Positions 1-9,152 of a stretch of 14,358 bases of DNA are shown piece by piece. The translations under genes and the position numbers were made by a program. Below the pieces are notes generated by a model. It was not told where the DNA came from. It did not search any database and was given only the letters and a program-made list of their open reading frames with translations. The DNA is from Candidatus Bathyarchaeota archaeon (lineage in GTDB: Archaea; Thermoproteota; Bathyarchaeia; Bathyarchaeales; Bathycorpusculaceae), in assembly GCA_963739305.1 (NCBI GenBank), contig CAVTZU010000034.1:1-14358 (forward strand). Reading direction: 5' to 3'. Positions within the stretch are counted from its first letter, which is position 1. Every line of letters begins with the position of its first letter.

Positions 1-207
1 AATTACTTAACACGTCTGGGTTTTTTAGTTTTGTGGAATCTTCTTCTATCTGATTTGCACTTGAGTTGCGCCCGAAATTTCAGGCACTAAAGATATTAGA
101 ATGCAAATTCCGTTGGAAAATCGAAGACAAGTTTAAACTATTGCATATTCTGGGAGAAGTTTTTAAGGATGAATTCTCATATATGCATGTGCGCAGAGGC
201 GAGGAAT

Positions 208-649
208 TTGAAGACGGTAACATTGCTGTATGTGGCTCTTGCCTTTTCCGTCATATTAATAGCCCTGGTGCATTTCTCGCTAAGTGCCGATACAACAGAC
301 ACAACAACACCAACTCAATATATCCCTAGCGAAAAGGCAAATCCTGGTTCAGAATTCAAGAAATCTACAGGAGACACGACAAACAACGAAACATACTTCA
401 ACATACCCGAACGAGACGATCAGATCATAGGTGGGCAACCTGATAACGCATCATGCCCTGACGCTGTCGACTCAACTGGATCTCATGGGCAAGTTACAAA
501 TGTTCCCAGTATGTAATGAAAACGTGTCATTACCGACCCCACTTCCAGATGGACGTATCTTCACGAGCGGGGAACCACCTTATGGTTATCTCCCAACTTG
601 CAGTCCAAAGGACAGAAACATGCCGTTTGTTCCCGTTGAACCAGACTAG
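208..649 (+). pseudogene. Membrane-anchored or secreted Thr/Pro-rich hypothetical protein, apparently frameshifted near 505-507
   Basis: A TTG at 208 follows GAGG and leads into a hydrophobic segment (TLLYVALAFSVILIALVHFSLS). This frame stops at 516. Removing one C from CCC (505-507) joins it to the +1 frame (NVPVCNENVSLPTPLPDGRIF...VEPD*), which ends at 649. Confidence 0.5.
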
Positions 650-749: not shown

Positions 750-1374
750 ATGACGAAGAAAAGAGCGACTTCATGGATTTTCGCTGGGCTCTTTCTGATT
801 CTCCTAGGCGCTGTTCTAGTGGTCTGCTCGAAGCCTTATTTCAGTTACACAATCGAAAAACTGGAGGCAAGTTCAAAGATCCGAGACCATAATGAACTCT
901 TCCTTTAACCTACATATGTCTCAAGACAAAATGGTTCAAGTTCAGTTGAGCATCGGTCAGACATTAGACATTTTGGCATCAGGGAGTGAGAACTTCACTT
1001 TTCTGATTGCTAACTACACAGACCCAAAAAACGTTACGGCACTGGACGAACCAGACGTGACCTACTACATGGCGAACGGCACTTTGACCGTCAATACAAC
1101 ATGGAGCCCTCAAATAAGAACAGCCAGCCCTGGAAATTACTATCTAACCTTCTTGGCTCGCGATTTTTCCGCTGAATCGCCCGTGCACGTCTACGCAAAC
1201 ATAACCAAGAAATGGACAGATCTAGTCACCAAAATAGTCGTAGCACCAGATCTCAGGGCTCTCATAGATTCGAATTACGCCTTCGTAGGTCTGGGCGTCG
1301 CAATTCTGGGCGGAGTCGTTCTTGCGTACACTTTCTACAACAAATCTAGACCGAGAAGTCAGCGGCATGGATGA
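750..1374 (+). pseudogene. Two-TM membrane protein with an extracytoplasmic domain, frameshifted at the A5 run 856-860
   Basis: The ATG at 750 gives MTKKRATSWIFAGLFLILLGAVLVVCS (signal/TM) but stops at 908. Deleting one A at 856-860 gives ...YTIENWRQVQRSETIMNSSF..., continuous with ORF 892..1374. That ORF has 7 N-x-S/T sequons, a C-terminal TM and a basic tail. Confidence 0.75.
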
Positions 1375-1769
1375 GCACAAAACCCATGAACGCTGATTCT
1401 TTCTTTTCAGAAAGCGATCGAATTCGCGAAAGACTGAACAAGAGGTTACAGAGGGTGGGAGGGGAGACAAAAATAGTATATATACTAACTTTCCAGGCTA
1501 CCTATATCCAGAATAGCATCATCTGCGGCCCATTGAACGGCTGCCTGCCTATTGATAAACAGTCTGATCGAAGCGATTCGTTCTCTTATCCAGTTCGCGC
1601 GTCCGCACCTCCGCATCCAAGTGCCTTTGAGCAACCTTAAAGTCAGCAAGTGCTGGGTCCAGGTCTTGACATTATCCCAGTTCGCAGCGCGCGCTACGCC
1701 AGATATGGAGGACAGTTCTATATTATGGTTCCAGAACGCATATTTTTCCGTTTGAACCGTGGTTTAAGT

Positions 1770-1882
1770 GGCGTGCGCGGACTTTTCATCTCTACGGCGG
1801 CACCATGCTCACCTCTGAAAAGGGGGAGATGGGAGAAACCAACTTTTGGTTCATGTCGCCACCCTCACAGTCCGCGCACGCC
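1770..1882 (+). ncRNA. Candidate structured ncRNA of unknown family (alternatively a MITE-like element)
   Basis: A perfect 14-bp terminal inverted repeat (GGCGTGCGCGGACT/AGTCCGCGCACGCC) encloses an inner stem, a GAAA-tetraloop hairpin and a second hairpin. G-U pairs favour the + strand. Confidence 0.55.
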
Positions 1883-1889
1883 TTCTTGC

Positions 1890-1945
1890 TTGATGAGAAG
1901 TGTGCGTAGCTTGCAGAATGAAAATTCGTCTTTCAGCTGCGCTGA
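1890..1945 (+). ncRNA. Possible C/D-box sRNA
   Basis: TGATGA at 1891-1896 (C-like) and CTGA at 1942-1945 (D) span about 55 nt. Internal CAGA/ATGAAAA could be a degenerate D'/C' pair. Confidence 0.25.
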
Positions 1946-2782
1946 CTAGATCCTTCCAGCTCTTTTGAACTGGCGCGTGACGCTATTGATGTCTTCGCCC
2001 AGAACTTGTATGTCATCAATTTCGCCCAGCTTTCTCTCGTAGGCCATGCGAACGTGAGCAACTTCATGAGGATCAAACCCCATAATCCTGCACGCCGTAG
2101 CATCTGTGGCAACGACGTCTTTTCCCGCAAGTATCAGATCCATCTTGACTGGTGAACCGCTTACAGGTCCATTTCCTTCCATCGCGACAAATCCGTCAAT
2201 CACGGTCAGAACTGGTTTGATCACGGTGTTTATGTCCGCGATCACCTTGCTGATGCCTTTGATGTGATACTTTCCCTTGAACTTGTCGGGAAGTAGCCCA
2301 AACATGTTCTTCATTCCCAGCGTAACCTTCGTAGACCCGTGAGTCTTCAGTTTCGCCGCGCTTATCACGGCGGACTCAGTCACCAACCTCGGCACAGTAA
2401 TGCTGTCCAATGCCCTGCCGTCTGGAATATCGATCTTAACCCTGTCTTCTACGTATCTTAAGTTCAAGCATTCCACACCGTTCCGCTCAGCCATTTCCTT
2501 CATACCCGTGGCTTCGAAAGTTTCATCCGCACTAGTCATCGTGGCGTCCGATTCGACAACGTAGATTTTCACAGGCAAATCCTGCAGCTTCTTAATAATA
2601 GCTTCAACCACGATTGGGTCTGTTGTGGCTCCAGTGTCCCATGTTTTCACCGTGATGAAGTTGACCTTGATAAGAACCGTTTTCCAGCCCGACAGAGCAG
2701 ACTTGTAATCTATCATTTCCAAGGCTTTGAAAACGGGTTCATGACCTCTCTCACCCTTGACGACTGCAACCTTTGAACCCAA
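1946..2782 (-). CDS. DUF362 domain-containing protein
   Basis: 278 aa with family motifs VLIKVN, GATTDP, KLKTH...VTLGMKNMFG, IDGFVAMEGNGP and DVVATDA. No C-terminal ferredoxin domain. Confidence 0.9.
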   Translation of the reverse strand: MGSKVAVVKGERGHEPVFKALEMIDYKSALSGWKTVLIKVNFITVKTWDTGATTDPIVVEAIIKKLQDLPVKIYVVESDATMTSADETFEATGMKEMAERNGVECLNLRYVEDRVKIDIPDGRALDSITVPRLVTESAVISAAKLKTHGSTKVTLGMKNMFGLLPDKFKGKYHIKGISKVIADINTVIKPVLTVIDGFVAMEGNGPVSGSPVKMDLILAGKDVVATDATACRIMGFDPHEVAHVRMAYERKLGEIDDIQVLGEDINSVTRQFKRAGRI

Positions 2783-2889: not shown

Positions 2890-3592
2890 TTATGCAGGCT
2901 TCAGATATTGCGAGTAGAATTTGAGTGTTCTCTCCCACGCATCCTTTGCCGCTTCAGGCCTATAATTCTCTCGGGTATCATTGAAAAACCCGTGAGGAGC
3001 GCCAGGATAGATTTTCACGTCAAACGTCTTTCCATACTTCGTCAGTGTCTGTTTCAGAAGGTTGATGTCTGATTCCGTGATCGACATATCTGCGCCGGCA
3101 TAATTGCACAGGATTGGGCATTGAACATTCTTCACTAGGTCGATAGGCGAAGGGTTTCTACCGTAGAATACGACGGCTGCCGCGAGGTTCTTGTTATGAC
3201 ATGCGAAAAGAAGCGACAGTCCGCCGCCCATGCAGAACCCAATGCTGCCTATACGCTTTGGCCTCACGAAATCCAGAGATTGGAGATAGTCGAATCCGCC
3301 TCTGAGATCTTTGAGAATCTTCTCTTCACGGAATTCTTCTCGCAAAGCGCGACCTTCTTGTATGTTCGAAACGATCTTTCCGTCAAACAGGTCAACTGCG
3401 AGTGATACGAAACCTTCGTTTGCGAATCTTCTAGAAACGTCTTTGATGTGCTCTACCAGCCCCCATATCTCATGGATGACTATAACGGCGGCATGTTTCT
3501 CAGTCGTCGTCAGGTCTGGCCAAAAAACCCTTGGTCTTTTGCTTCACGTTTCCGCCTGAGAATTCTACGGTTGAAGAGAGAATTTTCGTCAT
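2890..3592 (-). pseudogene. Dienelactone hydrolase family protein, frameshifted near 3500-3510
   Basis: The ATG at 3592 gives MTKILSSTVEFSGGNVKQKTKGFLARPDDD*. The +1 frame continues EKHAAVIVIHEIWGLVEHIKDVSRRFANEGFVSLAVDLF into ORF 2890..3345, which has the GFCMGG nucleophile, a GAD Asp and the HGF His. The span is 703 nt (3n+1). Confidence 0.85.
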
Positions 3593-6398: not shown

Positions 6399-6932
6399 TC
6401 AGACCCTAATTGAGTCGTAATCCTCCACGAATTCTCGAATTGCCTTATAGTATTGGTCTTTCCCCACTATGAACAGATCGCCATGATCGGCGCTTGGGAT
6501 GATCACGAGTCGTTTGCATTCGGCAGAAGAGTTTTCATACAGTTCTTTTCCTTCTTCTACCCGAATCAAACTGTCTTGCTCCCCATGGATGATTAAAGTC
6601 GGTTTGGAGATTGAACGCAATTTCACCTTGTTAAGAAACGCATAGTCGTCTCTCCAGATTAGATTGTCGGGCGGAACCAAAGAAACTAAATACTCTCTGA
6701 TATTGTTGGCAGGTCCGCTTTCAACTATCAACCCCTGAATATCATCCTGATACTTGTAGGCCAGTTCTATTGCTGAAAAACTTCCAAGTGAGCGACCCAT
6801 GAGAAAGTAGCTCTCCTTGAAACCGTAATCCTCGACTATTCTTTTGAATCCTTCAAAGATCCGGTGAGAATCCCTAATCATGTTGGTCACCATTGGTGTG
6901 CCATCGCTCAGCCCGCATCCACGATAACCTGC
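6399..6932 (-). pseudogene. N-terminally truncated alpha/beta hydrolase
   Basis: The frame opens after a TAA with AGYRGCGLSDGTP (decayed DYRGYG motif), then has GRSLG, IIHGEQD and the DHGD His. The N-terminal strands are missing. Confidence 0.8.
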
Positions 6933-8553: not shown

Positions 8554-8874
8554 TCATGGGTTTTTTGCTTCAACTTTAGCTAAGCTATCTCCCATCTTTT
8601 GTGTATCAACTATTCCAACGTAGTATTCAAATGCAGCTAGGCTTAGTCCTGTCGAACTTCGCAACTGCGCTGTAATATAGCCTTCTGTAAAGAATTTGGT
8701 AATCCAGGATAGCCGGAATAAATGCGGATACTTGAAGGCTCTTCTAACAATGTTGTAGCCTGTCTTACCACAGTAAGGAAAAACCCTTTTGCCTTCGGGG
8801 GTTTCTTCTATGCACTTCTTTAACTCATTCATGTAGGGCGCATCTAACGCGCGCGCTTTACCAGGGAAGGTTGA
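8554..8874 (-). pseudogene. Tyrosine recombinase/integrase C-terminal fragment
   Basis: RVFP...YPHLFR (H-x-x-R) ...TGLS...EYYVG (catalytic Tyr region). It lies directly downstream of the tRNA att site and lacks the N-terminal Arg/Lys part of the catalytic domain. Confidence 0.75.
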
Positions 8875-8949
8875 TGGACCGGGCGGGATTTGAACCCGCG
8901 ACTTCCGCATTGCGAATGCGGCGTTCATACCAGACTGAACTACCGGCCC
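8875..8949 (-). tRNA. tRNA-Ala(CGC)
   Basis: GGGCCGG acceptor stem with G3-U70, anticodon arm CCGCA-TTCGCAA-TGCGG, T-arm GCGGG-TTCAAAT-CCCGC, discriminator A. No intron and no encoded CCA. Confidence 0.97.
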
Positions 8950-9152
8950 AAGGTGACTCTTTCAGAAAAGAACCGTCGGTAAGAAATTTAGAGCTTTCGG
9001 TTTATGTTTCTGAGGGAATACAATTCATAATTGACGAAATGAACTATTCGCAAACCAGCTTGTCTTGAAGTTTCGTTTCCGTCCCTTACTCGAGGATTTG
9101 CGGCTTAATGGTTAGCGCGCGCACTTCCTAACCTCTCAGTTTCATTGACAGT

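Follow-up and report, generated by a model that had tools for sequence, protein, structure and literature searches.

The window analysed here, 14,358 nt in length, is the entire 14.4-kb contig of a metagenome-assembled genome (MAG) from the Bathyarchaeia, and its plus strand carries at positions 1770 to 1882 a sequence of about 113 nt that can be folded into a multihelix RNA, hereafter RNA-A; a second RNA of the same genome (2.3 Mb), with which RNA-A has a sequence motif in common, is referred to as RNA-B. RNA-A is preceded by an open reading frame (ORF) that could not be annotated and followed by a convergent DUF362 gene, and it is laid out as a terminal helix (P1), an internal loop of 12 and 8 nt, a second helix (P2) and a three-way junction with the hairpins P3 and P4 (Table 1). 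P3 is made up of a pyrimidine strand (CCAUGCUCACCUCU), a variable A-rich loop and a purine strand that belongs to the motif. Using RNAfold, we obtained for the plus strand exactly the fold that an earlier sequence-only reading of this DNA had proposed, with every structural element at the same coordinates, and the predicted energy was −56.6 kcal/mol compared with −33.3 ± 3.7 kcal/mol for 200 dinucleotide shuffles, none of which was as good (z = −6.33). Since the minus strand of 1770-1882 folds well too (−54.5 kcal/mol, z = −5.17), the folding of a single sequence cannot give the strand, which is provided by the comparative data described below.

Table 1. Features of RNA-A and its surroundings (window coordinates unless a contig or locus is named), with the loci of RNA-B and of a zinc-ribbon ORF
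Feature	Coordinates	Strand	Remarks
Upstream ORF	1371-1640		unannotatable
Conserved upstream region	1716-1769	+	promoter-like; kept in all three subtypes
TCTATAT	1717-1723	+	upstream block
TTCCAGAA	1729-1736	+	upstream block
ATATTTTT	1740-1747	+	weak TATA-like box, centred ~26 nt before 1770; preceded by purine-rich AGAACGC
GGTTTAAGT	1761-1769	+	upstream block
P1, 5′ strand / 3′ strand	1770-1783 / 1869-1882	+	14 perfect bp
Internal loop (pocket), 5′ strand	1784-1795	+	TTTCATCTCTAC = UUUCAUCUCUAC; conserved core UCAUCUC, last 3 bases vary
P2, 5′ strand / 3′ strand	1796-1802 / 1854-1860	+	7 bp
P3 hairpin	1803-1832	+	12 bp, bulges G1807 and A1811, GAAA loop in the window
Purine motif GGGGGAGAUGGGAGAAA	1822-1838	+	invariant, common to RNA-B
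P4 hairpin	1837-1851	+	AACCAA/UUGGUU; subtype-specific
Internal loop (pocket), 3′ strand	1861-1868	+	ACCCTCAC; listed also as ACCCUCAC
DUF362 gene	1946-2782		downstream, convergent
RNA-B, own genome	C24 ~65185-65320 = L002:1449-1582	+	intergenic conserved fold, ~130 nt, z −4.1
RNA-B homologues	L027, L029, L035, L037, L048, L050, L054, L056, L057, L059, L060, L064
RNA-B homologues, further	L077, L079, L084, L086, L089, L099, L113, L130, L200-L203
Zinc-ribbon ORF, ~60 aa	L138:1151-1345	−
Zinc-ribbon ORF, ~60 aa	L098:7743-7934	+
Zinc-ribbon ORF, ~60 aa, further loci	L140, L145, L161, L171, L173, L192

RNA-A could not be assigned to a known RNA family. A search of the whole window with Rfam 15 at the gathering score yielded nothing but a tRNA-Ala at 8873-8950, and at E ≤ 10 no model matched window positions 1600-2050, the H/ACA, Y RNA, ribozyme and riboswitch models included. 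The sequence-only reading had likewise recognised no 5S, signal recognition particle (SRP) or RNase P RNA and no ribozyme or riboswitch, and the family models bear it out, placing 5S at C15:54591-54710, SRP RNA at C17:46993-47306 and RNase P RNA at C15:105952-106259 of the own genome and none of them in the window. The literature searched in full text contained no description of non-coding RNAs from Bathyarchaeia, supplementary files, which could list such motifs, lying outside that search, and the text covered by a word search of the preprint 10.64898/2026.10.21.760802 does not describe RNA-A. An ORF at 1650-1949 that overlaps RNA-A has no Pfam match and is broken in homologues by loop-length changes that are not multiples of three, so a coding reading was rejected. 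Among sequencing runs, no RNA run was listed as containing window positions 1700-1900, and a quarter of the words sampled from them were present in one DNA run.

Homologues of RNA-A were found in related archaeal genomes, as a BLAST search of 40 relatives retrieved it from 7 of the 10 same-genus genomes at 76-85% identity, the three genomes without it being 65-89% complete. A covariance model built from eight same-genus sequences matched in one of 40 other genera of the family (genome G183, 65.9 bits) and in one further Bathyarchaeia MAG (locus L098, 53.5 bits), and under strict filters it gave no match in 150 other genomes sampled across the class. A metagenome scan that required the P3 hairpin sequence returned 57 contigs, and a search of 70 sources with the model yielded 59 matches, of which 49 lie on metagenome contigs, representing 46 distinct sequences. 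The RNA-A family is confined to a small number of genera within a single family of Bathyarchaeia, and it is present in one copy in its own genome and one per genome in the relatives, which excludes a dispersed DNA repeat of the miniature inverted-repeat transposable element (MITE) or repetitive extragenic palindrome (REP) kind, an outcome the sequence-only reading had wanted checked by counting copies.

The 46 distinct sequences were then examined for covariation in an alignment (A7) fitted to the model built on this structure, in which standard pairs occupy 95.4% of the pair cells, compared with only 39-57% in controls with slid partners. Changes on both sides occurred in 16 of the 37 pairs versus 6.9 ± 1.6 in shuffles, with 0 of 500 shuffles reaching 16, and these double-change pairs were distributed over all helices (6 of 14 in P1, 3 in P2, 3 in P3 and 4 in P4), P1 being paired in 98.4% of its cells. 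G-U cells, which are present in P2 among other helices, are frequent, as illustrated by pair 2-128 (GU in 23 sequences), pair 49-62 (UG in 46) and pair 35-101 (GU in 16), and because these would be A-C on the other strand, RNA-A is read from the plus strand. The earlier proposal of a structured plus-strand RNA was thus supported by compensatory and G-U changes, while the GNRA loop that it had taken as a further sign of selection proved not to be conserved, the apical loop of P3 being A-rich and variable and 4-9 nt long. Taken together, we consider it very probable that RNA-A has a gene of its own, encodes no protein but a stable RNA, and founds a new family.

Three subtypes of RNA-A were distinguished in A7. 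Subtype 1, to which the window belongs, has P4 (AAACA/UGUUU in place of AACCAA/UUGGUU in same-genus homologues), whereas ACCCUCAUU, which duplicates the 3′ loop sequence, replaces it in subtype 2 (like L138) and AUUCAUGUU takes its place in subtype 3 (like L098); P4 as first proposed therefore stands in the window but only in the window's own subtype. Subtypes 2 and 3 use another pairing register in the lower part of P3, UUCUC with GGGAA or GAGAA, and the motif letters are unchanged. The best-kept parts of RNA-A are the two loop strands (UCAUCUC and ACCCUCAC) and the motif, not the stems: mean identity to the consensus was 0.97 for the motif, 0.96 for the 3′ loop strand, 0.91 for the 5′ strand of P3, 0.91 and 0.88 for P1, 0.80 and 0.86 for P2, and lowest, 0.62, for the P4 region, where the values for P3 and the motif are partly ascertained by the search pattern and P1, P2 and both loop strands lie outside it. 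In the 5′ loop strand, each column of the core UCAUCUC (A7 columns 19-25) has one base in 93-100% of the sequences, and the bases next to P2 (UAC) vary among homologues. Substitutions within CAUCUC are C to U save one C to G. When both loop cores are considered, C to U predominates, with six sequences affected at one column and one or two elsewhere, and U to C is absent.

Conservation extends from about 55 nt upstream of P1 to exactly the 3′ end of P1 (1882). Across all subtypes the upstream block contains, in this order, TTCTAGAA, TTCTATAG, TTCCAGAA, a weak TATA-like box and GGTTTAAKT abutting P1, the first three being TTCnnGAA-like words. With what we take to be the archaeal promoter geometry, the box ATATTTTT would start the RNA at G1770, the first base of P1, and we infer that the block comprises a transcription factor B recognition element (BRE) and a TATA box with a start near 1770; alternatively, the start may lie near 1746, directed by the TCTATA box at 1717-1723, which is the better conserved of the two. 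The flanks 3′ of P1 are unrelated between lineages, and with TTCTTGCTT as the flank in the window and a run of at least three T within 12 nt after P1 in only ~20 of 52 flanks (counted by eye), no clear oligo-T terminator marks the 3′ end. The own genome holds three further sites of the form TCTATA-N5-10-TYCCAKAA, at C5:36313-36334(−), C28:11358-11381(+) and C28:99475-99494(+), where about 0.4 would be expected by our estimate, and these may represent a shared promoter or regulator site.

The purine motif of RNA-A recurs in a second conserved RNA. The 18 nt AGGGGGAGAUGGGAGAAA (1821-1838) are found exactly at C24:65237-65254 of the own genome and in relatives, and when up to two mismatches were allowed, the motif itself was present at two loci only, both exact, namely RNA-A and C24:65238-65254. 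The latter belongs to RNA-B, which has a covarying core helix and displays the motif, as three GGAGA units, in an apical loop of ~40 nt that is unpaired in the consensus fold; the motif is identical in RNA-B of many Bathyarchaeia. RNA-B sits between a DsrE-like gene and a convergent gene for a Vps4/CdvC-like AAA ATPase, just past the stop codon of the latter in every one of the 21 aligned loci that show the flank, and its search against Rfam gave only a spurious 12-bit match. The minimum free energy (MFE) of single sequences favours the plus strand in 20 of 21 cases, by a mean of 6.75 kcal/mol, and the alifold consensus is ambiguous. A minus-strand vps4 3′ untranslated region was provisionally rejected on the MFE comparison, and minus-strand coding, which could start from a Shine-Dalgarno and ATG-like signal, was rejected because many of the 21 loci, the own genome (G000) included, have stops or shifts in the frames. 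The 3′ tail of RNA-B (often CAUCAUCUCCUU) can pair with the motif in many homologues, a weak signal with a mean z of −1.0, and no covariation was seen between the tail and the variant motif GAGAAG.

As to distribution, the 17-mer had 110 hits in 185,579 species genomes, and sorting by a script's flank patterns, with L099 read by eye, assigned 7 to the RNA-A type, 19 plus L099 to the RNA-B type and 83 to others, mostly chance hits. At up to one mismatch the motif was present in 15 of 401 genomes of the class, several of these being chance hits in coding DNA, so RNA-B itself is patchy. It was present in each of the three RNA-A lineages checked (genus g1, G183 and the MAG of L098/L099) and also in many genomes without RNA-A. 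A viral origin was rejected, as three viral contigs hold the 17-mer and none matches the RNA-A model. A different long hairpin at L217 (G037:C84:2730-3180), with the stem CCGAGUUGAAAU / AUUUCAACUCGG, carries the variant motif GGGGGAGAAGGGAGAAA in its loop, and the motif-in-loop theme may extend to this third RNA type. Contigs L039 and L056 hold RNA-A and RNA-B sequences identical to those of the same-genus genome G010 under a record title that names an Acidiferrales bacterium, and they look mis-binned.

The reading that we favour, at a probability of about 0.3, is that RNA-A is a trans-acting RNA that clamps the loop of RNA-B. RNA-A would act through its two-sided pyrimidine-rich internal loop, the 3′ strand pairing CCCUCA with UGAGGG and the 5′ strand pairing UUUCAUCUC with GAGAUGGGA, and the target would be the continuous RNA-B purine stretch UGAGGG-G-GAGAUGGGA, one G of which would stay unpaired at the top of the loop. 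Such pairing would have the omega-shaped, three-way topology of H/ACA guides and of snR30/U17, and it would mask the apical loop of RNA-B in competition with the usual partner of that loop, for example the pyrimidine 3′ tail of RNA-B itself. The copy of the motif that RNA-A carries is locked in P3 by a built-in anti-motif strand, which suggests that RNA-A originated from RNA-B-like material.

Several observations are consistent with this clamp. The two arms of the RNA-A/RNA-B hybrid sum to about −22 to −23 kcal/mol, and the RNA-B site ranked third of 7335 prefiltered candidate sites genome-wide, less than 1 kcal/mol behind the best. Against RNA-B, shuffled loop strands were as good as the real ones in 14 of 300 trials for the own genome and 1 of 300 for G183. 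The loop strands are kept better than the surrounding stems (0.96 and a near-invariant core versus 0.80-0.91), which fits the loop as the working part, and fixed G and A partners would tolerate the changes seen in the cores, mostly C to U and never U to C.

A number of points weigh against it. The complementarity is only modestly better than chance, with 1.4 perfect 6+6 matches expected genome-wide by our estimate; the top-ranked target sites differ by less than 1 kcal/mol; and in the third lineage (L098 with L099) 96 of 300 shuffles equal the real loop strands. Neutral changes, too, are most often C to U. GAGAUG, which makes up half of the match, belongs to the motif present in RNA-A as well, leaving the UGA ahead of the motif as the sole independent information, and because the RNA-B motif is invariant, covariation in trans cannot be seen. 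RNA-B occurs in many genomes without RNA-A and hence does not need it. Moreover, P1, P3 and the motif are kept in sequence beyond what pairing needs, pointing to a protein reader. On balance, the complementarity to RNA-B is suggestive, not strong, support for the clamp. A fuller version, in which RNA-A and RNA-B form an archaeal two-RNA system whose H/ACA-like three-way clamp, made without H/ACA proteins or modification, switches the loop between partners (a protein, the 16S rRNA end that bears the anti-Shine-Dalgarno sequence, or the 3′ tail of RNA-B), we regard as doubtful. In that version, with RNA-B sitting behind the vps4/cdvC stop codon, the pair could be tied into the control of that gene.

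About equally likely as the clamp is that RNA-A serves as a ribonucleoprotein (RNP) scaffold or decoy whose motif, loop strands and P1 base bind one or more proteins; a shared protein would read the purine motif, single-stranded in RNA-B and pre-paired in RNA-A, and RNA-A could titrate or deliver that protein. The motif is letter-perfect in spite of the register differences in P3 among the three subtypes, and pairing within its own helix therefore does not account for its being conserved; P1 is kept in sequence (GGCGCGUGC..., 0.91) as well as in pairing. Nor did a genome-wide duplex scan bring up an outstanding RNA partner for the motif, the candidates, only antisense strands of the two motif loci and generic pyrimidine tracts, having been rejected. 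In eight loci of subtypes 2 and 3, RNA-A adjoins an ORF for a CxxC...CxxC zinc ribbon, which matched no Pfam family over the cut-off and occurs in two arrangements, 122 nt downstream on the same strand in subtype 2 and ~420-440 nt upstream and divergent in subtype 3. On the other side, this ORF has no homologue in G000, and in the window's own subtype RNA-A is linked to no candidate protein; none of the known protein-binding RNA motifs (kink-turn, C/D boxes) is visible in A7, and a conserved neighbouring protein as partner was rejected, as no neighbouring gene is kept across the subtypes. Returning to RNA as the partner, we judge it unlikely that RNA-A mimics the ribosomal helix of Shine-Dalgarno and anti-Shine-Dalgarno sequences and so engages, as the loop of RNA-B also would, the platform of the 30S subunit or a factor of the 16S 3′ end. 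The pyrimidine strand of P3 does hold UCACCUC, 7 nt of the own 16S 3′ end (GGAUCACCUCCU), the motif GGGGGAGAU agrees with the perfect complement GGAGGUGAU at 7 of 9 positions, and both the RNA-B 3′ tail and the RNA-A P3 strand are anti-Shine-Dalgarno-like, with the three GGAGA units lying in the open loop of RNA-B; but this is one short similarity found post hoc after many looks, with a chance of about 0.01 per look by our estimate, no conserved ORF follows the Shine-Dalgarno-like units, and neither RNA is linked to ribosomal genes. A self-contained RNA, either a ligand sensor or a ribozyme with the loop strands and motif as a tertiary core rather than a pairing surface, would account for highly conserved unpaired nucleotides framed by covarying helices around a multihelix junction, and yet it appears quite unlikely, given that no ribozyme or riboswitch model matched at E ≤ 10, the junction helix P4 is dispensable, the cis gene context is not kept, and the P3-loop bases able to pair with the 3′ loop strand vary without a matching change.

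Very unlikely is an RNA aimed at 16S rRNA, the extension of an idea in the sequence-only reading, which had proposed that the exposed loop pairs with a GUAGRGRUGAAA-like rRNA target. Here RNA-A would be a non-canonical H/ACA-like guide or an rRNA chaperone for GGGG-UA-GGGGUGAAA in 16S helix 23, which we take to correspond to about Escherichia coli positions 682-696, its loop pairing on either side of the unpaired UA as in a pseudouridylation pocket, or holding pre-16S rRNA in the manner of snR30/U17. The site GUAGGGGUGAAA does exist (C17:32813-32827) and is complementary to the full 12 nt of the 5′ loop strand in the window, giving 9-12 bp with that strand and 4 bp with the 3′ strand around the unpaired U-A, and fixed loop strands among covarying stems are the conservation pattern of guide RNAs. 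The own genome also encodes Cbf5 and Gar1, located by a six-frame search at C26:41766-42739 (in two pieces) and C35:33217-33432, while Nop10 (PF04135) was not found at E ≤ 0.001 in that search, which for a small protein is weak evidence, as Nop10 may be too short or divergent for it. The target nevertheless does not beat chance in the controls and was rejected as unsupported: the long match depends on three G000-specific bases (the UAC next to P2), the site ranks 10th of 7335 candidates genome-wide, over the whole 16S rRNA shuffled loop strands were as good in 15 of 100, 71 of 100 and 8 of 100 trials, and the match to GGGG-UA-GGGGUGAAA is only partly kept in homologues. Furthermore, the core U residues would face G in 16S rRNA, so that U to C should be tolerated, yet none was seen. 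Of the original idea, the exposed loop as the pairing part thus fits the conservation (96% for the 3′ strand and a near-invariant UCAUCUC), whereas the rRNA target is not supported. Least likely by far is an inverted repeat acting as DNA (MITE- or REP-like, or a palindrome bound by protein) or a part of an adjacent gene, either its terminator or its leader. The 14-bp perfect inverted repeat and the good fold of the minus strand would suit a DNA element, which is contradicted by the single copy, by G-U cells that fit one strand only and by compensating changes in four helices; a terminator or leader is at odds with neighbours that differ between lineages and a downstream gene that is convergent.

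The likeness to box H/ACA RNAs deserves comparison on its own. In archaea these RNAs form RNPs with Cbf5, Nop10, Gar1 and L7Ae and have a single-stranded ACA or ANA that immediately follows the lower stem on its 3′ side, ~14-16 nt below the pocket top, as well as an upper stem in which a kink-turn or K-loop, built on tandem sheared G-A pairs, receives L7Ae. RNA-A resembles them in being a hairpin of comparable size, in which a two-sided loop of conserved strands separates the lower from the upper stem while the stems covary, and its proposed target would pair with both loop strands in an omega topology with an unpaired nucleotide at the top. It differs in its 14-bp lower stem, in its 3′ end, which lies 22 nt from the pocket top (from P2 to the end of P1) and not 14-16, in an upper part that is a conserved purine/pyrimidine helix, and in an unpaired target base that would be G and not U. 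No ACA or ANA box follows P1, the trinucleotides there being GTA, GTT, AAA, TTT, ATT, TCT, GCT, TTC, ACC, AAC, CGC and others with no ACA among them, and, by eye only, A7 contains no kink-turn or K-loop, with no opposed GA dinucleotides and 3-nt bulge at P2, P3 or P4 and a variable apical loop. No H/ACA match was obtained from Rfam at E ≤ 10.

Other known systems were likewise compared. The eukaryotic H/ACA small nucleolar RNP snR30/U17, whose m1 and m2 internal-loop elements pair with 18S rRNA without modifying it, may serve by analogy as a model of how RNA-A works, in that a bipartite internal loop would hold an RNA rather than modify it; its target, however, is pre-rRNA in eukaryotes, and RNA-A shows neither homology to it nor its boxes. 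Bacterial sibling or sponge small RNAs are alike in that two outwardly unrelated RNAs of one genome have an identical short stretch and one is complementary to an exposed stretch of the other, but they are bacterial and usually dependent on Hfq or ProQ, and the literature searched, in the texts covered, held nothing comparable for Bathyarchaeia. Y RNAs and the bacterial Y-like RNAs (Ro60/Rsr RNPs) also measure ~100 nt, have their two ends joined in a long terminal stem and contain a large internal loop rich in pyrimidines, whereas RNA-A has no Rfam Y RNA match and lacks what we take to be the Ro-binding bulged helix, and TROVE/Ro60 (PF05731) was not found in the own genome G000 (97% complete). 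Box C/D RNAs carry C (RUGAUGA) and D (CUGA) boxes near their ends; A7 has no UGAUGA, and CUGA is confined to the window's own sequence, where it lies within the variable P3 loop. MITE- or REP-like elements would show many dispersed copies flanked by target-site duplications, and the 2.3-Mb genome has a single copy of RNA-A; a riboswitch or leader would keep its place upstream of related genes on their strand, which does not suit an RNA whose downstream gene is convergent and whose neighbours differ between subtypes.

Elsewhere in the window, ORF 169-516 (+) is a member of a low-complexity protein family in which a PPDGRIY..PYAYIPT motif is conserved at the C terminus. In the loci of subtype 1, ORFs of this family usually end 130-220 nt upstream of RNA-A; that of the window is 1.25 kb from RNA-A and is without the C-terminal motif as far as the printed segment shows. 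Two ORFs of the alpha/beta-hydrolase type, at 2890-3345(−) and 6399-6893(−), match only C-terminal parts of their families (DLH positions 73-217 of 217 and Hydrolase_4 positions 188-233 of 239, respectively) and may be truncated genes or have mis-called starts.

Bathyarchaeia are abundant and almost entirely uncultured archaea of sediment and soil. For these organisms, RNA-A represents a well-supported new RNA family, backed by 46 distinct sequences, by the covariation of four helices and by a promoter-like region that is conserved ahead of it, and its two conserved loop strands, together with the invariant motif that is common to a second new RNA beside vps4/cdvC, provide a functional handle. 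Both the clamp and the shared-protein model are directly testable in vitro, as the transcripts are short. If a protein reads the motif, RNA-A and RNA-B would define a new RNP; if the two RNAs pair, they would constitute an archaeal RNA-on-RNA regulatory pair that uses H/ACA geometry without the H/ACA machinery, and this would bear on the origin of guide-RNA architectures.

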